Notes under the pieces: model-generated
Databases searched by the model: none
What the model saw: the letters and a program-made list of their open reading frames with translations, nothing else
Told to the model about the DNA's origin: nothing
From: an uncultured Verrucomicrobiae bacterium
GTDB lineage: Bacteria > Verrucomicrobiota > Verrucomicrobiia > Chthoniobacterales > UBA10450
DNA: 64,000 nt
Assembly: GCA_963726745.1 (NCBI GenBank)
Contig: CAVSDR010000002.1
Span: 320,001-384,000 of the forward strand
Direction of reading: 5' to 3'
Made by a program: the position numbers and the translations under genes
Shown: positions 287-64,000 of the stretch, piece by piece
How the letters are laid out: every line of letters starts with the position of its first letter
Numbering within the stretch: position 1 is the first letter of the stretch

Positions 287-1174
287 ATGTCCTGGCCCGT
301 CATCCTCTTTTACAAATATGTCCCGTTGGCGGACGCGGAGACCTTCACCGCGGAGCAGCGGGCGCTTTGCCAGTCGTTAGGCTTGAAAGGGCGCGTGCTG
401 ATCGCGGCGGAAGGGATCAATGGCACGCTCGCCGGCCCGGCGGAGGCGATCGACGAATACCAGGCCGCGCTCCGGCGGGACGCGCGTTTCGCTGACGTCG
501 ACTTCAAGGTCAGCGCAGGCGACGCGAACACCTTCCCAAAATTAGTCGTCAAGCTCCGCCGCGAGATCGTGACTCTCGGGATGCCGGAACTGCCGCCGAA
601 CTTCGAGGGCCAGCTGGCGCCCGCGGAGTGGAAGCAGATGCTCGAGCAGGACCCGGAAGTGGTGCTGCTCGATGTGCGCAACCGTTTCGAGTCGGACGCC
701 GGCCGCTTTGAAAACGCGGTCGTGTGCGAGATTGAAAACTTTCGCGATCTCCCGGCCTACGTCGAGCAGCTTGCCCCGCTCAAGGAGAAGAAGGTGCTGA
801 TGTATTGCACCGGCGGGATTCGTTGCGAGAAAGCGTCGGCGCTCCTGCGCAGCCGCGGCTTCGCGCAGGTCTTCCAACTCCGCGGCGGGATCGTAACTTA
901 CCAGGAGGAATTCGGGAACGAACACTGGCAGGGCGAATGTTTCGTCTTCGACCAGCGCATGACCGTGAAGGTCGATGACGGCCTGGTGCCGATCGGCCGT
1001 TGCGCGCACACCGGCCTAACGAGCAGTCGCTTTGTCAACTGCCTGCATGACCCGTGTCACAAGCTGTTCATCCTCGCCGAGGAGACGGAGCGCGCGAACC
1101 GCGATTTCCTCCTGTGCCCGGAGTGCTACGCGGCGGGGCGGCGCTGGGAGACGGCGGAGCGTCCGCCGCGTTGA
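287..1174 (+). CDS. trhO: tRNA uridine(34) hydroxylase, rhodanese-related (YceA family)
   Basis: ILFYKYV, LKGRVLIAAEGINGTL, LDVRN..E, MYCTGGIRCEKAS, GECFVFDQR; ATG at 287. Confidence 0.9.
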   Translation: MSWPVILFYKYVPLADAETFTAEQRALCQSLGLKGRVLIAAEGINGTLAGPAEAIDEYQAALRRDARFADVDFKVSAGDANTFPKLVVKLRREIVTLGMPELPPNFEGQLAPAEWKQMLEQDPEVVLLDVRNRFESDAGRFENAVVCEIENFRDLPAYVEQLAPLKEKKVLMYCTGGIRCEKASALLRSRGFAQVFQLRGGIVTYQEEFGNEHWQGECFVFDQRMTVKVDDGLVPIGRCAHTGLTSSRFVNCLHDPCHKLFILAEETERANRDFLLCPECYAAGRRWETAERPPR

Positions 1175-1847
1175 GCCGCTCGCCCACGTAGATCATGTGC
1201 TCGTAGCGCTTGGCGCGCTCGTGTGATTTTGCCGGATAAGACTCGGTCTCAAAGCCGGCGCGCGTAAGCATCCCGGGGAACTGCGGCTCGACCGCGGCCG
1301 ACCAGAAAGCCACGCGACCAGCCGGGCGCAGGGCGCGGTGGATCATCTCCAGGCCACGCCGCGAGTAGAGCCGGGAGTTGGCCGACTGCACAAAGGAGGT
1401 TGGCCCGTTGTCGACATCCAGCAGGATCGCGTCGTAAGCCTGCTCGCCGTGGCTGCGTTTGATGATCGCATGGACGTCGGCCACGAAAATCTCCACGCGC
1501 GGATCGTTCACCCAGCCCGCGTGCTTCGCGCCGAGCAGCTCGCGATTCCACCGCACCACTTCCGGCAACAGTTCCGCCACGTGCACCACCCCGCGCTCGC
1601 CCACCAGCTCGAGCGTGCGCTGCAGGCTAAAGCCGAGGCCGAGCCCGCCGATGAGCACGCGCGGCGCGGTCCGTGAGGCGACGTATTGGCAGGCCTTGTC
1701 GGCGAGCATAATCTCCGAGCTGGTCGAAGTGGTGCTCATGAGCTGGCGGCCGTTGAGCTTCAGGAAATACTCGCCGTCGTGCTCGTGCAGCGAGAGGCGC
1801 GAACCGTCGGGCGTTTGCACTTCACCGAGATTGCGGAACGGGATCAT
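1068..1847 (-). CDS. Spermidine synthase-like SAM-dependent methyltransferase
   Basis: VLIGGLGLGFSL SAM motif, VAELLPEVVRWN, YDAILLDVDNGP. Confidence 0.85.
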   Translation of the reverse strand: MIPFRNLGEVQTPDGSRLSLHEHDGEYFLKLNGRQLMSTTSTSSEIMLADKACQYVASRTAPRVLIGGLGLGFSLQRTLELVGERGVVHVAELLPEVVRWNRELLGAKHAGWVNDPRVEIFVADVHAIIKRSHGEQAYDAILLDVDNGPTSFVQSANSRLYSRRGLEMIHRALRPAGRVAFWSAAVEPQFPGMLTRAGFETESYPAKSHERAKRYEHMIYVGERLNAADAPPSPSAAPPRSTPGTGGNRGSRAPSPRRG

Positions 1848-2716
1848 CGCATGAGCCTTTCGAGGTCGACTGGAAGCGGCGATTCGAAGCGCATCTCTTC
1901 GCCGGTGACAGGATGCGGGAAGACCAAGCCGACCGCGTGCAGCGCGAGGCGATGCGCGGGGTTGGTCTTCGCATGGTATTTTTCGTCGCCGAGAATCGGG
2001 TGGCCGAGGTCAGCCAGTTGCACGCGAATCTGGTGGCGTCGGCCGGTTTCGAGTTCCAACGAAACCAGCGTGCGCTTGGCCGCGCGCTTGAGCACGCGGT
2101 AACGGGTGAGCGCGTGCCGCGTTTGCTCGCTCCGCGGCGCGCTGTGCACGCGGTAGGGATTGGTCTCGTCGAGGTGGGAATCGAGCACGCCCTCGTCGCT
2201 GGCCATGCGTCCTTCCACGATCGCCTCGTAGCGCTTGGTCACGTTTTCCCAGCCGCCTTGCAGGGTCGCTTTCGCTTCCGGCGTCTTCGCGAAAACCATC
2301 AGCCCGGAGGTTTCCTTGTCGAGCCGATGGACAATCCAGATGCGGTCGCGCGCGTGATCCTTCCCTTGCCGCAAGTAGGCGGTCAGCTGGAAATAGGCGG
2401 TCTTCTCATCCTCGGCCACGCTCGCCACGCTCAGGAGATTCTCCGGCTTGTCGATCACGATCAAGCTGGCGTCCTCGTGATAGACCTTCATCCCGGAGGC
2501 GAGTTTGGTCTTGGGGATGGCAAAGCGGTCGGTGCGAATTGCGACCACGTCGCCCGCGGCTAACGAGTGGTTGAATTGCGAGGTCGGGCGACCGTTGACC
2601 GTGACGGCCTGATGCTTCAGCCAGGTGCGGATCTGCTTCTTCTTCAGTTCCGGCCACTGCGCGAAGAGGAAGCTGAGTAATTCAGCCGGCTCGGCGACAG
2701 TGACAGGCTTGGGCAC
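1844..2716 (-). CDS. RluA-family pseudouridine synthase
   Basis: S4-like N-terminus, VIDKPENLLS, VHRLDKETSGL, ETGRRHQIRVQL, LGHPILGDEKY. Confidence 0.92.
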   Translation of the reverse strand: MPKPVTVAEPAELLSFLFAQWPELKKKQIRTWLKHQAVTVNGRPTSQFNHSLAAGDVVAIRTDRFAIPKTKLASGMKVYHEDASLIVIDKPENLLSVASVAEDEKTAYFQLTAYLRQGKDHARDRIWIVHRLDKETSGLMVFAKTPEAKATLQGGWENVTKRYEAIVEGRMASDEGVLDSHLDETNPYRVHSAPRSEQTRHALTRYRVLKRAAKRTLVSLELETGRRHQIRVQLADLGHPILGDEKYHAKTNPAHRLALHAVGLVFPHPVTGEEMRFESPLPVDLERLMR

Positions 2717-2720
2717 AGGG

Positions 2721-3501: not shown

Positions 3502-4335
3502 ATGAGCGAATCCGTCAAGCTGATCGAATGTCCGCGCGACGCCTGGCAGGGCCTGCCGGACTTCATTCCCACGGAGCGGAAAGTGGAGTATCTGCGCGGG
3601 CTGATCGCCGCCGGCTTTCGGCATCTCGACGCGGTCAGTTTCGTTTCGCCCAAGGCGGTGCCGCAGATGGCCGACAGCGAGGAAGTGCTCGCGCAACTCG
3701 GGCCGCAGCCAGGCGTCGAGATCATCGGCATCGTGGTGAATGAAAAAGGCGCGGAGCGTGCGCTCGCCACGGGCGCGGTGACCACGCTCGGCTTCCCCTG
3801 CTCCATCTCCGAGACTTTCCTGCAGCGAAATCAAAAGCAGTCGTTAGGCGAGAACGCCGCCATGCTCGAGAAAATTAGCCGGCAAGCTCACGCCGCCGGC
3901 TTGCAGGTGGTCGCTTACATCTCGATGGCTTTCGGCAATCCTTATGGCGACCCGTGGAGCGAAGCCGCGGTCGCGGAAGCCGCCAGGCGGCTCGCGGCTG
4001 TTGGCGTCGAAGCCGTTTCGCTCGCGGATACCACCGGCGCGGCCGATGCAGCATTGGTCGCGCGGGTGGTCGCGGCAGTGCAGCTCGATTGCGAAGTCGG
4101 CGTGCACCTGCACAGCACGCGCGCCGCGGCCGCGGAGAAGATTCTCGCGGCCTACGACGCCGGTTGCCGGCGCTTTGACTCCGCGCTCGGCGGACAGGGC
4201 GGCTGCCCGTTTGCGCAGGATGAACTCGTCGGCAACCTCCCGACCGAGGAAGTGGTCGTCGCACTGCGGCAACGAGGAGTCGATCCGGGCGTTCGGACAG
4301 ATTTACCGTTGGTCAACGGTAGAAATACCGGCTAA
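3502..4335 (+). CDS. Hydroxymethylglutaryl-CoA lyase
   Basis: IECPRDAWQG, SFVSPKAVPQMAD, SLADTTG, GVHLHST, FDSALGGQGGCPFA, GNLPTE. Confidence 0.92.
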   Translation: MSESVKLIECPRDAWQGLPDFIPTERKVEYLRGLIAAGFRHLDAVSFVSPKAVPQMADSEEVLAQLGPQPGVEIIGIVVNEKGAERALATGAVTTLGFPCSISETFLQRNQKQSLGENAAMLEKISRQAHAAGLQVVAYISMAFGNPYGDPWSEAAVAEAARRLAAVGVEAVSLADTTGAADAALVARVVAAVQLDCEVGVHLHSTRAAAAEKILAAYDAGCRRFDSALGGQGGCPFAQDELVGNLPTEEVVVALRQRGVDPGVRTDLPLVNGRNTG

Positions 4336-4344: not shown

Positions 4345-4776
4345 ATGGCTCGCAGCTCGACTCTTCGCAGGACAGCGCCGGTTCCGCGTGTGGCCACACT
4401 CGCTGCTCTGCCTTCGCTCGAACAGATCGACGCTATCCGCGGCGGCGTCGCCGCCCAGATTTTCGACCAGATCGCGACCGCACTCGGCGTGGCCAAGGAA
4501 ACGCTCGCGCGGGCCTTGAACATCAACGCGCAAACCTTGCGGAAGCGGAAGTCGCAGATTCTCTCGGCCGACGAAGCGGAGAAGACGCTCCGAGTCGCGC
4601 GCGTCTTCGCCTTCGCCGCGGAAGTGCTCGGCGGCGAAGAAGAGGCGCGCACCTGGCTAAACCAAAAAGTCCCCGCACTCGCAGGCAAACGGCCACTCGA
4701 TTTGCTCGACACGGATGTCGGCGCGCAGGAGGTGACGAACCTTCTCGGCGGCATCAAATGGGGCCTGTATGCGTGA
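4345..4776 (+). CDS. Antitoxin, Xre/MbcA/ParS family
   Basis: HTH-like N-half; C-terminal ARTWLNQKVPALAGKRPLDLLDTDVGAQEVTNLLGGIKWG; GTGA overlap with the RES gene. Confidence 0.9.
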   Translation: MARSSTLRRTAPVPRVATLAALPSLEQIDAIRGGVAAQIFDQIATALGVAKETLARALNINAQTLRKRKSQILSADEAEKTLRVARVFAFAAEVLGGEEEARTWLNQKVPALAGKRPLDLLDTDVGAQEVTNLLGGIKWGLYA

Positions 4777-5228
4777 AGTTGTATCGTCTCGAAGCACTCG
4801 CGCGCGCGAAGCCGGCGCAGGCCTTTAGCGGCGAAGGCGGCCTCCATTTCGCCGGTCGCTGGAATTCGCGCGGCACCCGGATGGTTTACACGTCCAGTTC
4901 CGCCGCGCTCGCCTGCTTGGAAACGCTGGTGCACATGCAGGCGCTACCGGTGCCGGCGGAGCGCTGGCTCTTCACGGTCGACGTGCCGGATGAATTCGTG
5001 GACACGCTCCCATCGCCGCCCAAAGGCTGGGACGTCGAGCCGGCTGGGCCCGTGAGCCGAACCGCGGGCGATGCCTGGGTTGCGGCTGCACGCAGCGTGG
5101 TCTTGCTGGTTCCGAGCACGGTCGTGCCGCTGGAGCAAAACGCGTTGCTCAATCCGCGGCATCCGCAGTTCAAGCTGAGCTGGGTCGGGAAGCCACAGCG
5201 CTTCCGCTACGATCCGCGGCTAAAATAG
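4773..5228 (+). CDS. RES-domain toxin (NAD+ phosphorylase-like)
   Basis: LYRL..FSGEGG...GRWNS.G..MVYTS..LACLETLVH..LLVPSTVVP...NALLNPRHP. Confidence 0.9.
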   Translation: MKLYRLEALARAKPAQAFSGEGGLHFAGRWNSRGTRMVYTSSSAALACLETLVHMQALPVPAERWLFTVDVPDEFVDTLPSPPKGWDVEPAGPVSRTAGDAWVAAARSVVLLVPSTVVPLEQNALLNPRHPQFKLSWVGKPQRFRYDPRLK

Positions 5229-5237: not shown

Positions 5238-6869
5238 TCAGACCTGGACCACACCGGTGTGGAAGCGCGCCTTCGGCATCGGCCGCGAGACGTAACCCAG
5301 CAAACGCGTGAGGACGTCGCGGGTCTCGTGCGGCTGAATGATCGCGTCGACCCAGCCGCGCGCGGCGCCGTAGCGGATGTCGGTTTGCTCCTCGTAACTT
5401 TTTTTCACCGTCGCGCGCAGTTCCTCGAGCTCTTCTGGAGTCGACTTCTTGTCGCCGCGATCCCGCGCGCGGGCGAGCACGCTGAAGACGGTATCGGACG
5501 CCTGGGCCGCGCCCATGACCGCGTAGCGCGAGTTCGGCCAGGCGAGGATGAAGCGCGGATCGTAGGCCTTCCCGCAGAGCGCATAGTTGCCCGCGCCGAA
5601 GGAGCCGCCGACGACCACGGTGATCTTGGGCACGGTCGAGTTGCTGACGGCGTTCACTAATTTCGCGCCGCTTCGAATGATCCCGCTTTGCTCGGCATCG
5701 CGTCCGACCATAAAGCCGGTTACGTCCTGGAAGAAAATGATCGGCAGCCCGGTCTGGTTGCAGTCCATGATGAAACGCGCGGCCTTGTCGGCGCTGTCGG
5801 CGTAAATCACTCCGCCCATCTGGATGCCTTCCTTTTTCGTCCGCACCGGCTGGCGCTGCGAAGCGACAATGCCAACCGGCCGACCGCCGATGCGCGCGTA
5901 AGTCGTAACCAGCGTCTTGCCGTAGTCGGCCTTGTATTCGTCGAGCGAGTCGGCGTCGATGATCGTCGCCAGGAGGTCGCGCGTGTCGTAGGTCTTGTGG
6001 CCGTCGAGGCTGATGATGTCGTAGACCGCGTCGGCTTCCTTTGCGGCCTTGAACTTCTCCGGCTTGGGCGCGTGCTTCGCGGCCTCGGCCTCGGGAAGAA
6101 GCGCGACTAACGAGCGCAAACGCTTGAGGCAGGACTCGTCGTTCTTCTCGTAAAAGTCGACCGTGCCGCTGATCTCCGCGTGCATCTTGGCGCCGCCAAG
6201 TTCCTCGGCCTCGATCTCCTGGCCAATGGCGGCCTTGACTAACGAGGGGCCGGCCAAGTAGAGGCCGCTCCCTTCGGTCATGAGGATCTTGTCGCACAGC
6301 ACCGGGAGATACGCGCCGCCCGCGACGCAATTGCCCATGATCGCGGCGAACTGCGGGATGCCTGCGGCAGAGATCACGGAGTTATTGCGGAAGATGCGCC
6401 CAAAGTCGTCTTCATCCGGGAAAATCTCGTCCTGCATCGGCAGGAAAACGCCCGCGGAGTCGACCAGGTAGATGATCGGCAGGTTGCACTCGAAGCCGAT
6501 GCGCTGGGCGCGGATGAGCTTTTTTGCGGTCTGGGGGAAAAACGCGCCGGCCTTCACGGTGGCGTCGTTCGCGATGATCATGCAGGGAATGCCCGCGACC
6601 TTGCCGATGCCGGCGATGGAACCGGCGGCGGGGATTTTGCCCCACTGCTCATACATCTTGTGCGCGGCCCAGAGGCCGACCTCGAAAAACTGCGCGTCCT
6701 GGTCGAGCAGCCGCGCGATGCGTTCGCGGGCGAAAAGGCGGCCGAGCTTGTGCTGGCGATCCTGGCCGGCTTTACCGCCGCCTTCGCGAAGGACGGCTTC
6801 TTCTTCGGCAATGGTGGCGCACCAGGCGCGGAGGGAATCAGACGACGAGACGGCAGCAGCGCGAGACAT
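5238..6869 (-). CDS. Acyl-CoA carboxylase carboxyltransferase subunit (methylcrotonyl-CoA carboxylase beta-like)
   Basis: ANDATVKAGA, YLVDSAGVFLPMQ, GNCVAGGAY, LGGAKMHAEISG, FQDVTGFMVG, GGSFGAGNYALCGKAY. Confidence 0.92.
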   Translation of the reverse strand: MSRAAAVSSSDSLRAWCATIAEEEAVLREGGGKAGQDRQHKLGRLFARERIARLLDQDAQFFEVGLWAAHKMYEQWGKIPAAGSIAGIGKVAGIPCMIIANDATVKAGAFFPQTAKKLIRAQRIGFECNLPIIYLVDSAGVFLPMQDEIFPDEDDFGRIFRNNSVISAAGIPQFAAIMGNCVAGGAYLPVLCDKILMTEGSGLYLAGPSLVKAAIGQEIEAEELGGAKMHAEISGTVDFYEKNDESCLKRLRSLVALLPEAEAAKHAPKPEKFKAAKEADAVYDIISLDGHKTYDTRDLLATIIDADSLDEYKADYGKTLVTTYARIGGRPVGIVASQRQPVRTKKEGIQMGGVIYADSADKAARFIMDCNQTGLPIIFFQDVTGFMVGRDAEQSGIIRSGAKLVNAVSNSTVPKITVVVGGSFGAGNYALCGKAYDPRFILAWPNSRYAVMGAAQASDTVFSVLARARDRGDKKSTPEELEELRATVKKSYEEQTDIRYGAARGWVDAIIQPHETRDVLTRLLGYVSRPMPKARFHTGVVQV

Positions 6870-6922: not shown

Positions 6923-7228
6923 CTAGTAGATCTCGTCGTCTTCCGAGCTATAGCCAGAATCGCCCCGGATCGAGCGCAAACGCGCGCGCGTCGCCCGGTC
7001 GGACTCGGGGCGATTGATCCGCTCCATCGCCAGCCTAACGAGCAGTGGCACAGCCGCAATGGCACCGACACTGACGAGCGCAATCGCGGTCGCCTGCCGC
7101 ACCGGCTGGCGGATTCGGTCGGCTACCAGCATTCCGATGCCCAGCCCGAAAGCGGTGCGCGTGAGAAGCAAAAGTCCGTCCAGCGGAACGGGATCAGCCG
7201 TTTTCGGAATGGATATCGAGAGAGACAT
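6923..7228 (-). CDS. Hypothetical membrane protein (two hydrophobic segments)
   Basis: 101-aa ORF filling the gap, with two predicted TM stretches. Confidence 0.65.
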   Translation of the reverse strand: MSLSISIPKTADPVPLDGLLLLTRTAFGLGIGMLVADRIRQPVRQATAIALVSVGAIAAVPLLVRLAMERINRPESDRATRARLRSIRGDSGYSSEDDEIY

Positions 7229-9650: not shown

Positions 9651-12600
9651 ATGATTCCTCAGGATGAGAGCGCGGGGGAGACGCATCTCCAAGACAAGAA
9701 ACAGCCCTTCCGGCAGCGCTGGACGCGCCGCTTGTTTAGCCAGCGGCATTTCCACTTTAAGCTGCTTTCGGGGACTGCTGCAGGCATCTGCGCGATTCTT
9801 TTTTTCGCGGCGATCTTCGGGCTCACGACTTATCGGGGTTACCGCCAGGAAGCGCTCCGGGCGCACACGATCGAGGTCATGCGCCTCAGCAGCGTGATCC
9901 TGAACGACCTCGCCGTGCTCGAGACGGAGCATCGCAATTTCATCCTGACCAAACAGCCGGTTCACCTGGCGCGTTTCGAGGAGCGTCGGGTCAATCTCAA
10001 AGGCCGCGTGGAGGATCTGGTCGAGTTAATCAACAGCGACCTCACCCAGCGCAAGCGCGTGGTCAAAATGCAGGATATTGCGCTTCGCTGGGTTAACCAG
10101 CACGCGCTCCCGATGATCGCCGCTGCCCAGGGAAACGCAGCCCTGCAGTCCGGTCCGGTGGCGGAAAAGGCGCTCGGGAAGCCGCTGCTCGATGAGGCGC
10201 GCGAACTCCTGCAGAAGCTGCAGAACGAGGAGCAGATCATCCTAAACGAGCGCATGCACGACCAGGAATGGGCCACGCAATCGACCCAGATTCTCGAGGC
10301 CTTGCCGAAGCTGGAACGCTCCGTGGTGGAGATGGAGCGCGAGAAGCAGGGATACCTCCTTACCGGCGATTTCAGTTTTGTGGAAGGCTACAAACGGGCC
10401 GCCAACGCTTTCACGAACTATCACGGCTACCTCTCGATTCTCGTCGCCAACAGTCCTCCGCAGACCGCGTCCTTGAATGTCATTCGCGCCGCGGTGGAGC
10501 GTTGGGGCAATACCGCGGCCGTTCCTGCGATTGAGGCCAAGCGCAACGGGCTCGATCCCGCCGCCGTGGAGCAAGCCGCTGGCGGCGAAGCGCTGATGAA
10601 TCTGATCCGGGAGCAGCTGACCCGCTTCGAACAGGAACAGCTCGACCTCTACGAAGTGCACACCCTGGCCGCCGCCCGCCAGCGTGTGATTAAGATCGCT
10701 GCGCTCGGTCTCCTCTGTTTCCTCGCCGTCACCCTGCTCCTGGCCTCAAACAGCTACAGCTGGGTCCTGGTCAAGCACCAGCTGAGCAAACTCGCGAACG
10801 CCGAGACACGGATCAATTCCATCATCCAAAACATTCTCGATGGCATGATCACGGTCGACGAAGACGGCGTGATCCGTTCGATGAATCCCGCGGCCGAAAA
10901 GATGTTCGACTGCATCAACAACGAGATGATCGGGCGGAACTTCACCAAGCTCGTCCCACGCACCTTCCTCGGCGGCATGGAGAGCGAGGCCAAGCAGTGC
11001 GCCTGGAGCGACCTGGCCCGCCGCACCGGCGGCACCATGATGGCGCTCGGCCGCACCCGTCGTAACGCCACCTTCTCGATCGAGATTTCCCTCAGCGAAA
11101 TGATCGTCGACGGCAAGCTGCTTTTCGTGGCCATGATCCGCGACGTGACCGAGCGGAAACACTTCGAGCAAGAGATCGCCTCGGAGAAAGAAAGCCTCGC
11201 GGTCACCCTCGCCTCGATCGGCGACGGCGTAATCACGATCGATGCCGCGGGCAAGATCATCATGATCAACAAGGCTGGCGAAGGCCTGACTGGCTGGGAG
11301 TCGAGGGACGCCATCGGCCAGCCGTTGAAGACCGTATTTCACGTCGCCAGCGATTTGAAAGTGCAGGCTAAAGTCCAGCGCACCGGCTATCGGAATGAGG
11401 CCCAGGCGATCCTTCTCAACACCCCGGAGAACGCCACCCTCGTCTCGCGCGACGGCACCGAGCGTCTGGTCGAGCAGGTCGCCTCCCCCATTCGCGATAA
11501 CAAGAACGAAGTCTCCGGCGTGGTCCTCGTCTTCCGCGACATCACCGAGCGCCAGCGGATGGAAGCCGAGCAGCGCAAAGCCGACACGCTCGAACAACTC
11601 GGCCTGCTCGCCGGCGGCATCGCGCACGACTTCAACAATCTTCTCACCGCGATCATCGGCAACATCTCCCTCGCCTCCCTGCTCCTGCCGCCGAACGACG
11701 AGATGGGCACGCGCCTGAACGACGCCAAGAACGCCTCGCTGCGGGCGCGCGATCTCGCCCAGCAGCTCCTCACCTTCGCCCGCGGCGGCGCGCCGATTAA
11801 GAAAACCGCCAGCATCGCCAAGCTGATCCAGGACACCGTCAGCTTCTCCCTCCGCGGCACGCATAGCCGCAGCGAATTCAACTTCGGCGAGGAACTCTGG
11901 CCGGCCGAGATCGATTCCGGGCAGATCAGCCAGGTCATCGGCAACCTCGTGGTCAACGCCGACCAGGCGATGCCGAATGGCGGCACCCTGCGCATCTCCT
12001 GCGAGAATTTTGTCTACGACCTCGAGACCGTCCCGCACGTGCCCGATCTCCTCCCGGGCGATTACATCCGCGTCTCCATCCGCGATGAAGGGGTCGGCAT
12101 TCCCGAAGGACACCTCAAGCGCATCTTCGATCCCTACTTCACCACGAAAGCGAAGGGCAACGGCCTCGGCCTGGCCACCACCTACTCGATCATGAAGAAC
12201 CACAACGGCCTCATCACCGTGGAGTCCGCGGTGCACTTCGGGTCGACCTTTGTCCTCTACCTCCCGGCGCTGCGCCACGAGGTCCTGCCGATGGATCCCA
12301 CAATCAGCAGCAGCCCGGTGCTCAGCGGGAATGGCCGCGTGCTCGTGGTCGACGACGAGGAAGCGATCCGCGCGCTCGTGGAATTTACCCTCAGCCGCGT
12401 CGGCTACGAAGTCACCGAAGCGGAAACGGCCGAGCAAGGCGTGGAGCTTTATCGCGGGAAACTCGAATGCGGCGAACGCTTCGACGCGGTCATCCTCGAC
12501 CTTACCCTTCCTGGCGGCATGGGTGGCAAGGAAGCGCTCAAGCGCTTGATTGAGATCGATCCGACGGTGAACGCCATCGTCTCCAGCGGCTACGCGATGG

Positions 12601-41296: not shown

Positions 41297-41299
41297 ACC

Positions 41300-46261: not shown

Positions 46262-46272
46262 CGAGCGGTCCC

Positions 46273-52529: not shown

Positions 52530-52540
52530 GCGTGGTCTCG

Positions 52541-53650
52541 TTAGAAAGCCCAAAGCCCGACCGCAAAGCGAGTCGCATAAAAGGCCATCAACAGGAGCGA
52601 CACGACCGAGAGGAGTTGTCCGACCAGGCGCCGGCCATTGGCCGCGCGCGCCAGGAGCAGGAAAATCGGGAATAACGTAAGCGCATAACGCGGCACGCTC
52701 AGGACGAAACTCGTGCTCGTGAAGAGCAGCCAATTACCCGTCATCCAGACGGAGTAGCTCAGCCGCAGCCGGAACCAGCACCAGATGGTGCAGCCTAGAG
52801 TCAGCAAGATGTAGAGGAACTCCTGCGTGCCTTCGATCGAGTTCACCTCGTCGATCCGGTCCCACACTTCCGCGATCCCGATCCAGGGTGGCGTCAGTTT
52901 TTTGAACCAGACCTCCTCCATGATTGGACTAAAGGCGAAGGCATTGCCGGCAACCCGGTAGTTCACGCCGAGGTAAACCAGGAAGCCGGCCGGGACGAGC
53001 GCGATCCAAAGCCAGCACCAGGAGAATCTCCCCGCGGCGCGGCCTTGCAGGAACGCTTCCGCCGCGAGCACCGGGAGGAGGAGCAGGCCATTCACGCGCG
53101 TGAGCGTCGCGGCCGCGCCAAGCGCGCCGGCGAGCAGCCAGCGATTTCGCCGCGCGGCCAGGAGAGCGCCGAGGGTGCAGGCCAGGAAAAGCGACTCCGT
53201 GTAGGCGATGTGGAGGAAGTAAGCGGTGGGAAAAATTGCCAGGAACCAAACCGCCCGGCGCGCCACCGCCGGGCTCTCATCCAGGGCTGCGAGGTGGCGC
53301 AACAGCATCGCCGCCGCGAACAAGGCGAGCCCGGAAACAACGAAGGCCGCCAGGAGGTAATCGCGCAGGACGAAATGGGCCGCGCGCACCAACCAGGGGT
53401 AGAGCGGGTAGAACACCAGCGAAGCCCGCGCTTCGCCGATTGCCTGGTAGCCTTGCTCCGCCAGGCGCAGGTAGTGGACCGCATCCCAGCGTGTCCAGAC
53501 TTCCAGCACGCCGGGATAGGGACGGTCGCGCGCGGTGAAAACCTGCACGCCCAGGTAAAGCAGCATCGCCTTCACTCCGAGCAGCAGCGCCACCGTCTCC
53601 CAATCCCAGCCGCGCACCTGCGACCACCACCCCTTCCCCGGATTGTTCAC
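52541..53650 (-). CDS. GT-C membrane mannosyltransferase family (PIG-V-like)
   Basis: WTRWDAVHYLRLAEQGY, VFYPLYP, FPTAYFL..AYTESLFL, TLTRVNG, SVPRY. Confidence 0.85.
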   Translation of the reverse strand: MNNPGKGWWSQVRGWDWETVALLLGVKAMLLYLGVQVFTARDRPYPGVLEVWTRWDAVHYLRLAEQGYQAIGEARASLVFYPLYPWLVRAAHFVLRDYLLAAFVVSGLALFAAAMLLRHLAALDESPAVARRAVWFLAIFPTAYFLHIAYTESLFLACTLGALLAARRNRWLLAGALGAAATLTRVNGLLLLPVLAAEAFLQGRAAGRFSWCWLWIALVPAGFLVYLGVNYRVAGNAFAFSPIMEEVWFKKLTPPWIGIAEVWDRIDEVNSIEGTQEFLYILLTLGCTIWCWFRLRLSYSVWMTGNWLLFTSTSFVLSVPRYALTLFPIFLLLARAANGRRLVGQLLSVVSLLLMAFYATRFAVGLWAF

Positions 53651-54712: not shown

Positions 54713-56028
54713 ACACCCTCTTTCTCGCCTGGCTGGACCGCTTGCGCACCAGCTACTGGTTCATTCCTGCGCTCATGGCGGTGGGCGCGATCGGGCTTTC
54801 CTTTGGAACGGTGCACGTCGACACGCTGGTGCAGGCGAGCTGGGTGCGGCACCACAGTTGGATCTGGGGCGGCGGCCCCGAAGGCGCGCGCAGCGTGCTC
54901 GCCACGGTCGCCGGCAGCACCATCACCGTGGCGGGCGTGGTCTTCTCGATCACGATTGTGGCCCTCACGCTCGCTTCCTCGCAATTCGGCCCGCGGCTCC
55001 TGCGCAACTTCATGGACGATCGCGGCACGCAGACGGTCCTGGGCGTCTTCGTGGCCACCTTCCTCTATTGCCTGTTGGTCCTGCGCACCATCCGCGGGAC
55101 CGATGCCACCACCTTCATCCCGTTCATCTCCGTTACCTGCGGCATCGTCTTCTCGGTGATCAGTCTTGGCTTCCTGATTTACTTCATTCACCACGTGCCC
55201 AGCTCGATCCTCGCGGAGAACTTGATCGCGCGGGTCGCGGGCGAGTTGCAGGATAAAATCGCATCGCTCTACCCGGAAGATGCGGGGGATAAACCGGAGC
55301 GCGCGCTGCCGGAGCTGCCGGTGGCGTTCGACGCCGAGGCGCACCGCATCCTCGCCCGCGACAGCGGCTACATCCAGGCCGTGGGGCTCGAGTCGCTGCT
55401 CGAGCTTGCCGAAAAGCGCGACCTGGTCGTGCGCCTGCCGCGGCGGCCCGGGAGTTTCGTCGCCGCAGGCTCGGTCCTTGCGGAAGTCTGGCCGCGCCGG
55501 GAAGCCGGGGCCGCAGTCGTCGAGCAGATCCAGTCGGCGTTTTTCCTCGGGCCGCAGCGCACCCCGACCCAGGATGTCGAGTATTGTGTCGATCAACTGG
55601 TGGAAGTGGCGGTGCGCGCGCTCTCGCCCGGGATTAACGACCCCTTTACCGCCATCTCCTGCATCGAGTGGCTCGGCGTCGGCTTAATTCAGCTCTCGCG
55701 CCGGCGCATGCCCGCGCCGCAGCGCGTGGGCGAGGATGGCCGGCTTCACTTGGTGGCCGATACGCCCACTTTTGCCGGGGTGGCCGATGCCGCCTTGAAC
55801 CAAATCCGCCAATATGGCAGCAGCAGCGTGGCCGTAGTCTTGCGGTTGCTCGAGGTCATCGGCCGGGTCGGCCGCGAGGTGAAGCACCCGCGCCATCTCG
55901 AAGTGCTCCTGGCGCATGCGCGCAAGATCCACCGCGACGGGATCGCGCGGACGGAGAACCCGCAGGACAAGGCGGAGATCGACGAGCGCCTCACCGCCAC
56001 CGAGGCCATCCTCGAGCCGGCTGCCTAA
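54709..56028 (+). CDS. DUF2254 family membrane protein
   Basis: SYWFIP, FSITIVALTLASSQFGPRLL, SGYIQ, QLVEVAVRALSPGINDPFTA. Confidence 0.88.
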   Translation: MNTLFLAWLDRLRTSYWFIPALMAVGAIGLSFGTVHVDTLVQASWVRHHSWIWGGGPEGARSVLATVAGSTITVAGVVFSITIVALTLASSQFGPRLLRNFMDDRGTQTVLGVFVATFLYCLLVLRTIRGTDATTFIPFISVTCGIVFSVISLGFLIYFIHHVPSSILAENLIARVAGELQDKIASLYPEDAGDKPERALPELPVAFDAEAHRILARDSGYIQAVGLESLLELAEKRDLVVRLPRRPGSFVAAGSVLAEVWPRREAGAAVVEQIQSAFFLGPQRTPTQDVEYCVDQLVEVAVRALSPGINDPFTAISCIEWLGVGLIQLSRRRMPAPQRVGEDGRLHLVADTPTFAGVADAALNQIRQYGSSSVAVVLRLLEVIGRVGREVKHPRHLEVLLAHARKIHRDGIARTENPQDKAEIDERLTATEAILEPAA

Positions 56029-56076
56029 CGAGCGCAATGGTGCATCCTTCCGCGGGCCCGCGGGCGAACTCCAGCT

Positions 56077-56272: not shown

Positions 56273-57121
56273 CTGAAAACGAGCCGCCTCCTCGCCGCTA
56301 CCGCGCTGGCGCTGCTCGCCTTTGCCGCAAATTCCCTCCTCTGCCGGCTGGCCTTGCGCGAGACGGCGATCGATCCCGCGAGCTTCACCGCGGTGCGGAT
56401 CGCCAGTGGCGCGCTCGTGCTCTCGGCTCTCGTTAGGCTGCGGGGCGGCTCGAGCGTGGGCGCGGGCACTTGGCTCTCCGCGGCGGCGCTCTTCGTTTAC
56501 GCGGCGGCTTTCTCCTTTGCTTATCGCACTCTTTCCGCGGGCACGGGCGCACTCCTGCTTTTCGGCGCGGTCCAGGCGACGATGATTCTCTGGGGCTTTC
56601 GCCGTGGCGAACGGCTCCGCGGAGCGCAATGGGCCGGCTTGCTCGCGGCCGGCGCCGGCCTCGTCCTCCTCCTCTTTCCGGGAGTCACCGCGCCGCCGCT
56701 TCCGGGCGCGCTCTTGATGCTTGCGGCCGGCGTCGCCTGGGGCGTTTACTCGCTGCGCGGCCGGGGCCGTGGCGATCCGGCGCGCGCGACCGCGGGCAAT
56801 TTCCTGCGCGCGCTGCCGCTGGCCATCTTGCTGGCTGTTTTTGCGTTTCCCAGCCTGCGGCTCGACCGCGCGGGCGTGGGCTATGCGGTCGCCTCGGGCG
56901 CGTTCGCTTCCGGGTTTGGCTACATTCTCTGGTATGCCGCGCTCCCGCACCTGCGCGCGGCCAGCGCGGCCACGGTGCAGCTGAGCGTGCCGGTGCTGAC
57001 CGCATTTGGCGGCATCCTCTTGTTAGGCGAAACGCCTTCGCTGCGCTTCGTCCTGGCTGCGCTCGCCGTCCTCGGCGGGATCGCGCTGGTCGTGAGCGCC
57101 CGGCCGCCCCGGCCCACTTAG
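56273..57121 (+). CDS. DMT/EamA family transporter; start uncertain
   Basis: LLAFAANSLLCRLAL..IDPASFT.VRIASGA; the reading frame extends upstream of the TTG at 56354 to about 56273. Confidence 0.85.
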   Translation: MKTSRLLAATALALLAFAANSLLCRLALRETAIDPASFTAVRIASGALVLSALVRLRGGSSVGAGTWLSAAALFVYAAAFSFAYRTLSAGTGALLLFGAVQATMILWGFRRGERLRGAQWAGLLAAGAGLVLLLFPGVTAPPLPGALLMLAAGVAWGVYSLRGRGRGDPARATAGNFLRALPLAILLAVFAFPSLRLDRAGVGYAVASGAFASGFGYILWYAALPHLRAASAATVQLSVPVLTAFGGILLLGETPSLRFVLAALAVLGGIALVVSARPPRPT

Positions 57122-57173: not shown

Positions 57174-58280
57174 GTGAAACGGCTCGTCTGGCTCGATATT
57201 TCCAAAGGTCTCGCGATCCTGACGGTGGTTTATTTTCACTTCTTCCGGACCTACTTCGAGCATGGCGTGCTCCCGCCGGCGGATTGGAGCCATGCCGGGA
57301 GCGCCGTCATCTCCGCGCTCCGGATCGCGTGGCTTTGGACCAGCGGTCTGGGGTTTCACGCGGTGGGCGTTTTTATCATCCTCGGCGGCTGGGCGCTCAC
57401 GCAAGCGACCGCGCGCAAAGCCGAGCGCGGCGGGATTGCCTGGGGCGGTTGGTATCGCGCGCGGCTCCTGCGGCTTTACCCGATGTATTGGGTCGCGCAC
57501 CTCGTCTATCTGCTTTCGCCTTTCGTCGCCCGCTTCGAGCAAGTCGATGGCCGGATCGTGCTCAGCCTGCTCGGGCTGCGCTTCGTCGACATCAGCATGA
57601 ACTTTTTCTACCTGAACGCGGCCTGGTGGTATTTCAGCATGCTGATTCAATTTTACCTGCTCTTTCCCCTGCTCTTCGCGGCTTTGCGCAAGGTCGGGCC
57701 GCTCGCCTTTCTCCTCGCTGCCTGCGCGCTCGGCTTCGCGGTGCGTTATCTCCTGCTCTTCCCTTACCCGGCCGATGGCATGTGGATCCTGGGCGGTTTC
57801 GCGATTTGCCGGCTGCCGGAGTTTGCCCTCGGGATGTCGTTAGGCATCTGGTGCGCGCGCGCGCCCGAGCGGGTGGAGCGTTTTCTCCTCGGCGGCCTGG
57901 GACTGCTCGCGGGCGTGGTCCTCTATCCTGCGGCGCTCCGGCTCTACGCGAATGGTTACACCTACATCTTCGTCGACTTCGCCACCGGCGTTTGCTGCTG
58001 CCTGGTGACGGTGGGCGTGGCCGGCTTGCTCGCGCGTTGGAAGTGGTCGGCTAAAATTTTTGCGCTCGTAGGCGTCTACTCCTACGGCATCTACCTGATC
58101 CATCATCCCTACGTCATCTGGCTCGGCTTCCGCGTGCGCGAGCAGCCGATCTGGCTCTTCCTCCTCACGTGTGTGGGAACGCTCGCGGTCATCAGTCTCT
58201 GGGCGATCTCGCTGGAAAAAACGACCAACGCCCTGCTCCAGCGCCTCCCGCTTTTCTCCCAGCGAAACGCGCGCGCGTAA
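57174..58280 (+). CDS. Acyltransferase family 3 (OafA-like)
   Basis: WLDISKGLAILTVVYFH, VGVFIILGG, RLLRLYPMYW, WWYFSMLIQFYLLFP, SYGIYLIH. Confidence 0.88.
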   Translation: MKRLVWLDISKGLAILTVVYFHFFRTYFEHGVLPPADWSHAGSAVISALRIAWLWTSGLGFHAVGVFIILGGWALTQATARKAERGGIAWGGWYRARLLRLYPMYWVAHLVYLLSPFVARFEQVDGRIVLSLLGLRFVDISMNFFYLNAAWWYFSMLIQFYLLFPLLFAALRKVGPLAFLLAACALGFAVRYLLLFPYPADGMWILGGFAICRLPEFALGMSLGIWCARAPERVERFLLGGLGLLAGVVLYPAALRLYANGYTYIFVDFATGVCCCLVTVGVAGLLARWKWSAKIFALVGVYSYGIYLIHHPYVIWLGFRVREQPIWLFLLTCVGTLAVISLWAISLEKTTNALLQRLPLFSQRNARA

Positions 58281-61602: not shown

Positions 61603-62472
61603 ATGCGCGTCGGGATCACGGGGGCGAGCGGCTTCATCGCCGGCCATCTCATTCCGCAGCTCCGGGCGCACGGTCACGAGTGCGTCGCCTTTAGCCGCGA
61701 CGCGACGAAACAAATCGCCGGCTGTTCGGAAACGCGCGCCCTCGGCGATGGGCCGCCCGATCTCCGCGGGCTCGAGGCGCTGGTTAACTTAGCCGGCGAA
61801 TCGATCCAAGGACGTTGGACCGCGGAGAAGAAACGGCGCATCATCGCCAGCCGGGTACACCTGACCGAGGCGCTCGTGGGCGCGCTCCCCGGAAGCGAAG
61901 TGCGCGTGCTCGTGAGCGCGAGCGCGACTGGGTTCTACGGCGATCGCGGCGACGAAATCCTCACCGAGACCTCCGGCCAGGGCGAAGGCTTCCTCACCGA
62001 GGTCTCGCTCGCTTGGGAGGCGGCGGCGCTCGCGGCGCAGCAGCACGGCGTGCGCGTGGCCTTGCCACGCATCGGCTTTGTCCTCGCGCGCGATGGGGGG
62101 GCGCTGGATAAACTCCGCCCGCTCTTCCGCCTCGGATTAGGCGGCAAGCTCGGGAGCGGGAAGCAATGGATGCCCTGGGTTCACGTGGAGGACGTCGCCG
62201 GCCTCATGGTGCACCTCCTGGAGCACGAGGATTTAGCCGGCGCTTTCAACGCGGTCGCGCCGCAGCCGGTGCCTAACGAGGAGTTCACCCGCGCGCTCGC
62301 CGCGTCCGTTCAGCGGCCGGCTCTTTTCCCGGTCCCCGCGTTCGCCCTCCGCCTGGCCCTCGGCGAACTCGCAGTCCTCGCGCTCGCTTCCACCCGCGCG
62401 ATTCCCCGGCGCACGGAAGCGGCTGGCTATTCCTTTACTTACCCAGACCTAACGAGTGCTCTCCGGGCCTGA
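61603..62472 (+). CDS. TIGR01777/YfcH family NAD-dependent epimerase
   Basis: ITGASGFI, VNLAGESI..RWT..KK, SATGFYG, GSGKQWMPWVH. Confidence 0.9.
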   Translation: MRVGITGASGFIAGHLIPQLRAHGHECVAFSRDATKQIAGCSETRALGDGPPDLRGLEALVNLAGESIQGRWTAEKKRRIIASRVHLTEALVGALPGSEVRVLVSASATGFYGDRGDEILTETSGQGEGFLTEVSLAWEAAALAAQQHGVRVALPRIGFVLARDGGALDKLRPLFRLGLGGKLGSGKQWMPWVHVEDVAGLMVHLLEHEDLAGAFNAVAPQPVPNEEFTRALAASVQRPALFPVPAFALRLALGELAVLALASTRAIPRRTEAAGYSFTYPDLTSALRA

Positions 62473-62961
62473 CGCCTCTGGCGTTTCCGGTTGCGCCCGC
62501 AGCTTTTCGCCGGCGCGCGCGATCAAGTCCCTCCGGCCCGCTCCTTCCACGTGCACCCGGGCGAAGGCCCGGTCCATCGCCGTCTTCACCGCCGCGGCCG
62601 TGCCGCCCTTCTCGCATTCCCGCACGATCACCCGTTCCATCCGCGCGACCAGCGAGTCGACCGTATAACCCGGGTCTGCCGGCAGTTCCCCGCCGGCCTG
62701 CTTCCGCTCGATCGCGCTGTAGACATCGATCATCCGTTCGCTTTCCGCGCCCCAGCGCAGCACCTGGTAGAAGAACGTCCCGCGGCCTTGCTCGCCCCGG
62801 TAGAACAAATCCACCAGCGCCGCCGCCAGCGACACCGGCATCAGCGCAAAGTCGCGCGCATTATCCAGCAACATCTTCACCTGGAAAACGACCACGTCGC
62901 GCAGGAAAGCCCAATGATCGTTCTCGGGAGGTCGCGGCACCGGCGGGAGCGTGGGAGTCAT
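62449..62961 (-). CDS. Hypothetical protein
   Basis: 170-aa ORF, RDVVVFQVKMLLD..RDFALMPVSL..DL..FYQVLRWG. Confidence 0.65.
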   Translation of the reverse strand: MTPTLPPVPRPPENDHWAFLRDVVVFQVKMLLDNARDFALMPVSLAAALVDLFYRGEQGRGTFFYQVLRWGAESERMIDVYSAIERKQAGGELPADPGYTVDSLVARMERVIVRECEKGGTAAAVKTAMDRAFARVHVEGAGRRDLIARAGEKLRAQPETPEASGPESTR

Positions 62962-63000
62962 GCTCCATCCCTAGCGCGAACCCCGCACGCCGCAAAGCCC

Positions 63001-64000
63001 CTAGGTAGCGTGTCGCCGGCAATGTTCCAGATAAGCGCCTTCGTGACTAACGACCAGTTGCACCACGCTCGACCACAGCCACGAGGGCGCGTCCAGCGTC
63101 TTTGTGCGGTTGTTCCGCAGCTCGCGGCTCCAGGCCTTCCGCGTCGTCTCGTCCATCTGCCGCGCGTGCGCTTTCCCGGCCACGCTCGCGAGATACTTCG
63201 CCACCCGCGTGGCCTCGTCCGGCGTTAGTTTTTCGATCTCAAATTTCAGGTCCTGCGGCAGGAGCTCCCGCAGGAAAACCGCCCGCTCCTGCAGCCGCGC
63301 CGCCAGCATGCGCTCGCCCAGGGCCGGCGATAAATGCCACGCGCCCGTGACCACCCGCTCGCCATTATCCTTCGGGATCTTCGCCTTCGGATAACGCGGT
63401 GCCACCGCCGTCGCCCCCTCCTTCACGTCGATCAAACACATCTCTCCGTCCTCGCCGCCGATCCCCACCAGCACCGCGCACCGCAGCCGGCCGAGCGAGC
63501 TGCACCCTTTCACCCAGAAGGCCGCGTCCAGCACTTCCACCGAGGCATCGTCATCGCGCGAACGGAGCGAGGTGATCAAGCGCCGCACCTTCTCGTCCGC
63601 GAAGAGTTGATCGATTTCCTTGCGCTCCCCCTTGGCCAGCGGCCAAAAACGTTTCCCCAGCGGGATCCGTGGCGACTCATCCTCGATCCGTTCCCGCGCC
63701 AGGTGCCGCCACTTCCGCCGAAGCGCATCCCGCAGAGCCGACTTCACCGCGGCCGGCTTGGCCAGCTTTTCCGCACCGTTCTTGCCCGGCTCGAGAAATG
63801 CCTGCTCGTACCCCACGATCATCTCCTCCAGCATCCGCGCCGTGGTCACTCCCGGCAGATCGCTCCCGCGGGCGGCGCTCGCCAGCGAAAGCCCCAGCCG
63901 CACCAAGTCGTGCGCCGGATTTCCGATCACCGTCTGGTCGAGGTCGCGAATCTGGATCTCGATCCGCCCCTTTGCATTCGCGATCGGCCCCAGATTTCCC
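63001..64000 (-). CDS. DUF2252 family protein; 5' end outside window
   Basis: IRDLDQT.IGNPAHDLVRL, KGCSSLGRLR, DVKE, RELLPQDLK, GKAHARQM. Confidence 0.85.
   Translation of the reverse strand, partial: GNLGPIANAKGRIEIQIRDLDQTVIGNPAHDLVRLGLSLASAARGSDLPGVTTARMLEEMIVGYEQAFLEPGKNGAEKLAKPAAVKSALRDALRRKWRHLARERIEDESPRIPLGKRFWPLAKGERKEIDQLFADEKVRRLITSLRSRDDDASVEVLDAAFWVKGCSSLGRLRCAVLVGIGGEDGEMCLIDVKEGATAVAPRYPKAKIPKDNGERVVTGAWHLSPALGERMLAARLQERAVFLRELLPQDLKFEIEKLTPDEATRVAKYLASVAGKAHARQMDETTRKAWSRELRNNRTKTLDAPSWLWSSVVQLVVSHEGAYLEHCRRHAT

Follow-up and report, generated by a model that had tools for sequence, protein, structure and literature searches.

A hyper-abundant, asymmetric DNA word in one family of soil Chthoniobacterales (Verrucomicrobiota) and its possible role as a self-DNA tag

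Introduction

In two recent sources, self-DNA tags are described as accepted in only two proteobacterial families, with HIP1 (highly iterated palindrome 1) as a debated third case (bioRxiv 10.1101/2025.10.24.684340; PMC13756078). The subject of the present study is a candidate from another phylum: the asymmetric 9-mer TCGTTAGGC (reverse complement GCCTAACGA; referred to below as word 1), which recurs throughout a 64,000-bp stretch of DNA (the window) from an uncultured bacterium of the order Chthoniobacterales (Verrucomicrobiota). The window corresponds to positions 320001–384000 of contig C2 (CAVSDR010000002.1) of the genome assembly G000 (GCA_963726745.1; 3,406,779 bases, 7 contigs, 94.7% complete). 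A sequence-only reading of the window had drawn attention to the word as undescribed and had put forward three candidate functions for it: (i) a lineage-specific uptake sequence, (ii) a site for a nucleoid or segregation protein, and (iii) a motif driven by methylation or repair.

The two accepted groups, the DNA uptake sequences (DUS) of Neisseriaceae and the uptake signal sequences (USS) of Pasteurellaceae, are jointly termed DUES; eight (now 11) dialects are distinguished among DUS and two among USS (bioRxiv 10.1101/2025.10.24.684340). The same source gives observed/expected ratios of 16–65 for DUS 10-mers, places about half of the DUES copies in predicted terminators, presents the DUS consensus as GCCGTCTGAA with a CTG core, and names as receptors ComP for DUS and the predicted ComN for USS. 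In PMC12616744, the role of ComN/PpdA as USS receptor likewise appears as a prediction only. HIP1 has been discussed as a possible broad uptake sequence (PMC13756078), its role as a broad uptake or self tag being proposed and unproven (PMC5861425; PMC13756078), and it has been linked to methylases and methylation-dependent transformation (bioRxiv 10.1101/2024.09.10.611283; PMC13756078).

Like DUES, word 1 is non-palindromic and present on both strands in hundreds to thousands of copies, far above the expectation from base composition, and its enrichment lies within or above the range given for DUS 10-mers. Unlike DUES, it has a negligible share of inverted pairs or terminators. DUES also have dialects or types in related lineages; in the present case, AAGATCGACA is found in sister genera and TTAGCCRRC in G000 itself (see below), neither being a near-variant of word 1, and words may coexist. 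The statement that the word was undescribed agrees with literature searches: the strings of word 1 were found in primer or unrelated contexts among the matches listed, a search for DNA uptake sequences together with Verrucomicrobia returned unrelated content only, and nothing relevant to competence in Udaeobacter or Chthoniobacterales was present among the matches listed.

Results

Abundance and anatomy of word 1

All 28 exact sites (15 on the plus and 13 on the minus strand) and all 15 core-only sites reported for the window in the sequence-only reading were recovered at exactly the same coordinates. The chance level, put there at less than one exact site per window, was confirmed by 100 dinucleotide-preserving shuffles of the window, which gave a mean of 0.27 and a maximum of 2 exact sites. 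The 7-mer core TCGTTAG occurs 43 times in the window, being followed at the core-only sites by CC, TC, GG, AC, AA or GT. The G+C content is 62–67% along the window and 63.7% across G000.

Genome-wide analysis revealed 1312 copies of TCGTTAGGC in the 3.41 Mb of G000 (631 forward and 681 reverse), approximately 70 times the chance level, with a density of 0.32–0.53 per kb on each of the 7 contigs. The word is the second commonest 9-mer of this genome, and CTCGTTAGGC (820 copies) is the commonest 10-mer; Markov models of order 1–3 predict 15.9–19.7 copies of the 9-mer and 4.4–6.1 of the 10-mer. Within-gene shuffling of synonymous codons, a null that retains even the TTA codons contributed by the word itself, yielded 9–31 copies (mean 23; 20 replicates), compared to 945 observed in the gene calls, which are crude (they consist of long open reading frames, ORFs, rich in G+C at the third position and account for 82% of the genome). 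The comparison of k-mer counts with null models, suggested earlier as a check, thus gave the same answer with both kinds of null. In 431 of the 729 Ser-Leu-Gly tripeptides the coding sequence is TCG-TTA-GGC, TTA representing 2.9% of all Leu codons.

The TCGTTAG core is near-invariant. In the 10-mer context, most single changes at its 7 positions leave 0–18 copies each, the exceptions being the C to T change at the CpG (93 copies) and an A to C change, which is G+C-richer (28 copies). The G that follows the core is replaceable by C, T or A (166, 81 and 54 copies, respectively) and the final C by G (99 copies). The C-to-T variant, TTGTTAGGC, is present in 121 copies as a 9-mer (about 27-fold enriched in G000), and the mirror change, TCATTAGGC, in 0 copies in the 10-mer context. 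This asymmetry of the variant spectrum could reflect cytosine methylation of one strand or a tolerated variant. Upstream of the core, C is preferred at position −1 (A being avoided), A at −2 and A or T at −5. No conservation was found in the flanks of the copies outside −5 to +10, and word 1 is therefore neither a mobile element nor part of a longer repeat.

Placement, orientation and spacing

As many as 962 of the 1312 copies (73%) lie inside gene calls, and the 350 in spacers or at gene edges make up 27% of the copies on 18% of the sequence. Repetitive extragenic palindromes and miniature inverted-repeat transposable elements have a longer unit that is often palindromic and resides mostly in spacers; this reading was rejected, since word 1 is short, largely genic and devoid of conserved flanks. 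All four stop-free frames are occupied (SLG, 430 copies; x-L-T-x, 220; P-N-E/D, 198; V-R, 90). The two stop-containing frames hold 24 copies in total, which were taken for miscalled genes. The use of four frames and of spacers, together with the preference for TCG-TTA-GGC to encode SLG, upholds the earlier view of a signal at the DNA rather than the amino-acid level. The copies are evenly spread along the length of genes, and in spacers their density is highest between convergent genes (0.98 per kb), followed by tandem (0.57 per kb) and divergent ones (0.38 per kb). Gaps shorter than 200 bp between successive copies were observed 32 times, compared to 97 expected, and there is a slight excess of gaps of 400–1600 bp.

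No replichore polarity was detected, which extends to the whole genome the argument against Chi or KOPS (FtsK-orienting polar sequences) drawn earlier from the 15:13 split in the window. In this 7-contig assembly with weak GC skew, in which a subtle bias would escape, there are 155 forward and 167 reverse copies in windows of positive skew and 476 and 514, respectively, in windows of negative skew (48% forward in both), and permutation tests of cumulative orientation on the four largest contigs (P = 0.57, 0.20, 0.86 and 0.028) indicated no long-range runs. Word 1 resembles Chi and KOPS/AIMS (architecture-imparting sequences) in being short, asymmetric and over-represented, and those words are read by DNA-processing machines. 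To our knowledge, however, every Chi or KOPS word has a strand bias that follows the replichores, and Chi and KOPS/AIMS words are only moderately enriched. RecC (PF04257) was not found in G000 (94.7% complete), nor was any nuclease of AddAB size evident in a search that did not extend to AdnAB, the one weak PDDEXK_1 match lying in a 470-aa frame. With neither polarity nor a RecC or AddAB-size nuclease, the Chi/KOPS reading was rejected.

Conservation at orthologous sites and effect on the proteome

Conservation at orthologous codons in relatives, another check suggested by the sequence-only reading, was evident as site retention far above that of in-phase control 9-mers. Twenty-three of the 55 alignable word 1 sites of G000 are identical in the word-rich relative G047, compared to 7.1% of controls (about 74% nucleotide identity), and 23 of 106 sites of G047 are identical in G000 (controls, 9.7%). 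The word-poor relative G003 has 10 of its 15 sites in common with G000 (controls, 13.9%), whereas only 10 of 67 sites of G000 are shared with G003 (controls, 10.6%). This asymmetry points to an old, retained set of sites with many lineage-specific additions or losses.

Two sites in pyrG (CTP synthase) serve as examples. At the one starting at position 23801 of the window, 20 of 25 species of the genus have the identical word, and adjacent synonymous positions vary freely. At position 25223, most relatives have GCG-CTC-GCG (ALA), and G000 encodes SLA, spelt TCGTTAGCC, i.e. an Ala to Ser replacement in this lineage. Non-shared sites usually differ at 3 or more of the 9 positions; between G000 and G003, 19 of 45 such sites are purely synonymous recodings. 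At sites not shared with G047, amino-acid differences are found in 77% of cases, compared to 58% of controls (n = 22).

The word has also raised the frequency of the tripeptides that it encodes. The observed/expected ratio of SLG is 1.62 in G000 and 1.57 in G047, compared to 1.11–1.14 in G003, G087 and G082, comparison genomes that are poor in word 1 or lack it. The corresponding ratios are 2.38 and 5.16 for PNE (0.81–1.39 in the comparison genomes) and 1.32 and 1.64 for LTS (0.71–1.04); in this comparison of proteomes, an excess of SLG, PNE, LTS and LTN is confined to word-rich genomes. USS of Pasteurellaceae shift the tripeptide content of the proteome in the same manner.

Distribution within the genus, family and order

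A scan of 150 genomes of the Chthoniobacterales family (36 genera) revealed enrichment of word 1 in most of them. Its density differs more than 100-fold inside the family, from approximately the control level in genera g22, g39 and g49 up to 4336 copies in 3.2 Mb (G097, genus g41). Sixteen genomes from 15 other families of the order contain 0–14 copies each. Unpublished genomes are among those counted (G001, G008 and G042 in the genus; G051, G055, G062 and G174 in the family), and the general statements made here are independent of them, except for the count of the second word in G055.

Within the genus of G000 (34 species), the density of the TCGTTAG core lies between about 90 and about 1000 per Mb. 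Even in G003 word 1 is the most enriched 9-mer (29 copies in 400 kb, compared to 1.0 expected; G047 has 204 copies in 400 kb), and no other word of its own was found in that genome. The possibility of dialects within the genus was therefore rejected, the TCGTTAGTC and TCGTTAGCC forms of relatives representing the loose 3′ end of the word. A pyrG tree of 25 members of the genus (one gene, no support values) suggests that high density arose or persisted in at least two places. In 91 kb of G072 (genus g39), a low-copy longer repeat and no clear word were observed.

Scanning of viral contigs with a 14-mer from the window gave matches in 46 contigs, two of which were above chance: L248 (IMGVR_UViG_3300049984_000018:1-11671), with 5 copies in 11.7 kb, a host-like density, and L221, with 2 copies in 4.7 kb. 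The 14 ORFs of L248 include one with a weak terminase/FtsK-like match and a small DNA methyltransferase-like ORF. The viral nature of this contig is doubtful, and it may be a mobile element of this Chthoniobacterales family.

Second, third and further words

Masking of word 1 in G000 led to the identification of a second word, A-A-W-TTAGCC-R-R-C-R-A-N-W-T-S (word 2), which had been overlooked in the sequence-only reading. Its core, TTAGCCRRC, occurs in 1139 copies (575 forward and 564 reverse), is frame-independent (367, 324 and 118 copies in three frames and 265 in spacers) and has a near-Poisson spacing that is independent of word 1, with which it has only TTAG(G/C)C in common. The window contains 28 copies, compared to 1.14 expected (e.g. 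at 275–283, 2875–2883, 9736–9744, 21697–21705 and 46697–46705). Only G000, G055 (555 copies; genus g22) and G015 (354 copies) are rich in word 2; the other 148 family genomes contain 12–158 copies, nearly all below the level of the reversed-word control. G047 has only 1 of 48 word 2 sites in common with G000, and G003 has 0 of 64, both values being below the in-phase controls (6.5% and 9.6%, respectively). Since its sites are almost never common to relatives, word 2 is young.

G082 (genus g49) is without word 1, and a third word, AAGATCGACA (word 3), was identified there, with 77 copies in 287.5 kb, or 39 times the Markov order-3 expectation. The distribution of word 3 across the family is nearly bimodal. 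It is abundant in g42 (2673–4653 copies), g21, g25, g30, g38, g50, g32, g49, g47, g46, g29, g23, g27 and part of g24, at background (about 9–64 copies) in g1, g19, g41, g34, g31, g44, g40 and g45, low in g22 (12–110 copies) and at background in G000 (22 copies). Genus g42 carries words 1 and 3 together. A further word of the G015 species may be GTTCGACGTT/ACGTCGAAC, of which there are 11 copies in 100 kb (G015:C13:100001-200000), compared to 0.3 expected. In a 215-kb sample of G087 (genus g22) no k-mer exceeded about 5-fold enrichment, though ComEC, PilM and the N6/N4 methyltransferase are present; this genome is a natural negative control.

G000 also contains hexamer tandem repeats, (GCCAAC)n, which gives about 140 copies of several 12–14-mers, and (CCGACT)n, with about 50; these are probably repetitive protein-coding arrays.

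Word-free stretches

The longest stretches of G000 without word 1 are C7:60030-95400 (35 kb) and C6:413728-437792 (24 kb), both with a G+C content of 59–60%; the Poisson expectation is 0.002 gaps of at least 35 kb. Both are O-antigen/exopolysaccharide/exosortase clusters, with genes for DegT aminotransferases, glycosyltransferases, Wzy/Wzz and exosortase EpsH. Surface-polysaccharide clusters are typical exchangeable loci, and these two of low G+C content were probably exchanged or imported recently. Ten further long gaps were annotated (125 of 143 ORFs, the other 18 being those of C4:123-138 kb and C7:28-43 kb). Their accessory content comprises giant secreted proteins, an Mrr/PIN island and an island with a C5-methyltransferase gene. 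No obvious candidate for an imported specificity gene was found among the 125 ORFs.

Uptake machinery and DNA methyltransferases

The search for competence genes that had been proposed along with the word was positive. G000 encodes ComEC, a 103-aa ComEA-like helix-hairpin-helix protein, DprA, 3 secretins and 10 T2SSE ATPases, and it contains 16 prepilin-type ORFs above and 3 below the Pfam cut-off. A segment of 3.5 kb (G000:C5:155144-158680) holds three small prepilin genes (131–134 aa) that are almost identical; they are candidates for major pilins, possibly variable ones.

The methyltransferases of G000 comprise one C5 enzyme, one N6/N4 enzyme and, at contig ends, fragments of N6 type I/IIG enzymes. 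The C5 gene is the one found in the word-free island. Full-length orthologues of this enzyme (59–81% identity) are present in 6 other genomes out of 151, and 3 more are split or broken; in 120 of the 151 there is no match at 1e-10, including the word-rich G044, G048, G001, G052 and G053, and neither G015 nor G055 has one. The N6/N4 enzyme is a core gene; the 142 genomes out of 151 that have it include the whole of g22 (13 genomes), the wordless G087 among them. The pieces of type I/IIG-like N6 adenine methyltransferases (C4:371899-372432, C6:336-1251 and, just past the end of the window, C2:384434-384827) suggest that a restriction-modification locus, repeated or variable, was left unresolved in the assembly. 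Vsr was not found in G000 at its 94.7% completeness. Across the family, the profiles of ComEC, PilM and the C5 and N6/N4 methyltransferases track none of the words, and the reader or writer, if there is one, must be a variable component outside the profiled families.

Sites in the window

The genes of the window are ordinary housekeeping genes (CTP synthase, purine synthesis, Nuo subunits, ABC transporters, HtrA, UvrD). Exact copies that encode Ser-Leu-Gly in the sense direction are located at 374–382 (+; UPF0176/rhodanese gene), 3841–3849 (+; HMGL-like), 14817–14825 (−; PAPS reductase), 16096–16104 (+; NuoC), 16985–16993 (−; PNP/UDP phosphorylase), 23801–23809 (+; PyrG, within VVSSLGKG), 33448–33456 (+; MacB permease), 40055–40063 (+; ABC exporter), 44753–44761 (+; PDZ protein), 56023–56031 (−; ORF without Pfam match) and 57837–57845 (+; acyltransferase-3). 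Antisense exact copies are found at 1014–1022 (−; UPF0176/rhodanese gene, G-L-T-S), 21195–21203 (+; ORF without Pfam match, LPNE), 26094–26102 (+; PurK-Sua5, RLTS), 27518–27526 (+; PurE, GLTN), 31747–31755 (−; ABC ATPase, KPNE), 36181–36189 (−; response regulator, LPNE) and 62271–62279 (−; epimerase, VPNE). The three coding examples singled out earlier, namely SLG in CTP synthase (23801), KPNE in the ABC ATPase (31747) and GLTS in the UPF0176/rhodanese protein (1014), are correct. The V-R frame is used at 7033–7041 (−; small ORF without Pfam match, LVRL), 13829–13837 (+; small ORF without Pfam match, LVRQ), 42928–42936 (+; HtrA-like protease, LVRR), 52072–52080 (+; ORF without Pfam match, VVRQ) and 56430–56438 (+; EamA transporter, LVRL). 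The remaining exact copies lie outside gene calls in a spacer or at an ORF edge (14071–14079, −), at the 3′ edge of a PfkB kinase gene (22491–22499, −; spacer or edge), at a gene junction (41885–41893, −) and in spacers (47732–47740 and 51681–51689, both −).

Among the core-only variants, TCGTTAGCC is present at 2558–2566 (−; pseudouridine synthase, SLA), 25223–25231 (+; PyrG, SLA) and 42268–42276 (−; antisense in an ORF without Pfam match), where it overlaps a copy of word 2 (42265–42273). The variant TCGTTAGTC occurs twice in a carboxyltransferase gene (5241–6869) at 6105–6113 and 6237–6245 (both −, SLV), and at 41814–41822 (+; hexapeptide transferase, VVSR frame), 44834–44842 (+; PDZ protein, SLV) and 63045–63053 (−), where a stop is read through in the ORF call and the site is probably in a spacer or a miscalled ORF. 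TCGTTAGGG is located at 19965–19973 (−; PhoH, SLG), 37275–37283 (+; antisense in PurB, ALTS) and 46256–46264 (−; gene junction), TCGTTAGAC at 41290–41298 (+; gene junction) and 51178–51186 (+; UvrD helicase, SLD), TCGTTAGAA at 52538–52546 (+; gene junction) and TCGTTAGGT at 62447–62455 (−; antisense in the epimerase gene, DLTS).

Amid the housekeeping genes there is an overlapping pair encoding an Xre-type antitoxin (4345–4773) and a RES-domain toxin (4758–5225), both without the word.

Discussion

Word 1 is real, strong, lineage-specific and maintained at the DNA level. Its closest parallels are the uptake words of Proteobacteria. With USS of Pasteurellaceae it shares a non-palindromic 9-nt core with weaker flanks, a frequency of approximately one copy per 1–3 kb on both strands, a mostly genic location in several frames and, in part, the occurrence of different words in different lineages of one family. 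It differs from USS in sequence and phylum, the AT-rich flanking tracts at helical spacing were not seen, and several unrelated words may share one genome. DUS of Neisseriaceae (10–12 nt, 8–11 dialects, read by the minor pilin ComP) are similarly hyper-abundant in a lineage-specific manner, with a strict inner core, looser ends, conservation at orthologous sites and rarity in probable imported islands, and in both cases type IV pilus and ComEC/DprA hardware is present. Unlike GCCGTCTGAA, CTCGTTAGGC lacks CTG on either strand, G000 has no ComP_DUS domain at the Pfam cut-off, and there is no terminator pairing; moreover, DUS dialects are variants of one to a few letters, whereas TCGTTAGGC, TTAGCCRRC and AAGATCGACA are largely unrelated. 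By sequence, receptor and terminator usage, word 1 is outside the DUS/USS families. It also shares with HIP1 (GCGATCGC, cyanobacteria) an extreme genic over-representation, conservation beyond codon expectation and a wide spread at variable density, but HIP1 is palindromic and a target of the methylases DmtA and DmtC, whereas word 1 is asymmetric and the two methyltransferases tested do not track it.

By analogy with DUS and USS, word 1 may be a self-DNA tag of the form (W-N-N-A-C-)TCGTTAG-G-C that biased uptake or recombination maintains in a single family of Chthoniobacterales from soil; this reading has, in our judgement, about an even chance of being correct. It is supported by hyper-abundance, constraint on the DNA rather than the protein, strand symmetry, orthologous conservation, lineage restriction, absence from two probable imported islands, the effect on the proteome and the presence of the hardware. 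Under such a mechanism, a component of the DNA import or recombination route would favour word-bearing fragments, the likeliest reader being a DNA-binding part of the type IV pilus/ComEA/ComEC uptake path. Word-bearing alleles would be copied into recipients more often than wordless ones, and this molecular drive would write the word by point mutation where protein function permits and then retain it. The specificity seems modular, since the words differ by lineage and the core hardware is constant.

Several observations weigh against a self-DNA tag of the DUS/USS type. Inverted pairs at distances of up to 60 bp account for only 2 of the 1312 copies, and another inverted 6-mer core lies no more than 45 nt away from 8 of 1312, compared to about half of DUS/USS copies in predicted terminators. 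The best of the 19 pilin-like ORFs of G000 scores 20.2 bits against ComP_DUS (PF16732), below the 27.3-bit cut-off, and matches the N-terminal half of the profile only. Of 151 family genomes, 142 have ComEC and 150 have PilM, and the 13 genomes of g22, the genus of the wordless G087, are all among them; the core hardware is thus necessary and not discriminating for the word. Amino-acid differences at sites not shared with G003 show no excess (58%, compared to 61% of controls). The textbook systems have one word per genome, and the presence of several unrelated words would suit swappable methyltransferase specificities. Finally, the further word-free gaps include housekeeping loci (dnaK-groEL and mreBCD-PBP2), which are not imports, so that foreign DNA lacking the word explains only part of the pattern; the remaining gaps are probably due to strong codon or protein constraint. 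Of the three functions originally considered, the uptake sequence is still the best fit, with the qualification that a ComP-type receptor was not found and that hairpin pairs are almost absent, and the methylation/repair proposal is weakened.

According to the latter, which we consider unlikely, the word is linked to methylation, as proposed for HIP1, and serves as target for a non-palindromic methyltransferase, orphan or mobile; it would be enriched by a methylation-directed repair bias, or because methylated incoming DNA survives or recombines better. The existence of several unrelated words fits this explanation, as does the patchy occurrence of word 2 over genera (G000, G015 and the unpublished G055), which resembles that of methyltransferase specificities. 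The 93 copies of the TTGTTAGGC context, with none for the corresponding change on the opposite strand, could stem from cytosine methylation confined to one strand, HIP1 offers a precedent, and G000 has C5 and N6/N4 enzymes as well as the N6 type I/IIG pieces. However, the C5 enzyme is patchy and missing from G015 and G055, both rich in word 2, and from many word-rich genomes, Vsr was not found in G000, and the N6/N4 enzyme is universal, the wordless G087 included. Targets of restriction-modification systems are, in addition, usually avoided rather than enriched.

A site for a protein that handles the chromosome or marks self DNA (a recombination hotspot of the Chi kind, a site for nucleoid or segregation proteins, or a tag of self DNA in defence by nucleases) is less probable still. 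The even density on all 7 contigs, the strict 7-nt core, the short-range exclusion between copies and the orthologous conservation are compatible with such a site, and the same drive would lead to the accumulation of any sequence that makes incoming DNA recombine more successfully. Replichore polarity and an evident RecBCD or AddAB are nevertheless missing, G087 belongs to a sister genus with the same core genome and is wordless, and a density range of more than 100-fold fits poorly with an essential function. The known systems of the parS, matS and SlmA type use far fewer sites than approximately one per 2.6 kb inside genes. The possibility that the word has no function and arises from codon or dinucleotide bias, a mobile element, assembly or binning, for which the rare TTA codon and the common tripeptide of the sense frame might be cited, is extremely improbable and was ruled out in view of the codon-preserving null (23 vs. 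945 copies), the four frames and spacers, the lack of flank similarity and the presence of the word, conserved site by site, in 150 independent assemblies of varied contiguity.

Beyond word 1 itself, the second, young and species-specific word, the third word in sister genera and the one genus sample without a word are new, as is the finding that ComEC, PilM and two DNA methyltransferases fail to follow the words and that a ComP-type receptor was not found. The most unusual aspect of the system is that several unrelated words coexist and turn over. These data tentatively suggest, by a less than even chance, a modular DNA barcode of an abundant soil family, in which at least three unrelated asymmetric words (TCGTTAGGC, TTAGCCRRC and AAGATCGACA), each put into genomes by the thousands through a directional force, are gained, lost and combined by lineage on constant hardware, which implies an undescribed swappable specificity module. 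If so, the module would be a variable DNA-receptor pilin, a ComEA-like protein or a reader of a methyl mark, and it would set the boundaries of gene flow between soil species. Word 2, with 1 of 112 aligned sites common to two relatives, would then be a tag caught soon after its birth, a stage that is rarely seen.

If the self-DNA tag reading is true, the rich, poor, wordless and two-word genomes would form a natural series in which the reader may be sought by comparative genomics, and the word would also serve as a sequence handle for genetic tractability and for assigning metagenomic contigs and mobile elements to their hosts. It would constitute a fourth independent case of self-tagging, in another phylum and in uncultured soil bacteria, with words turning over within a single family, and biased uptake or recombination of own-kind DNA would be far more widespread than has been thought.

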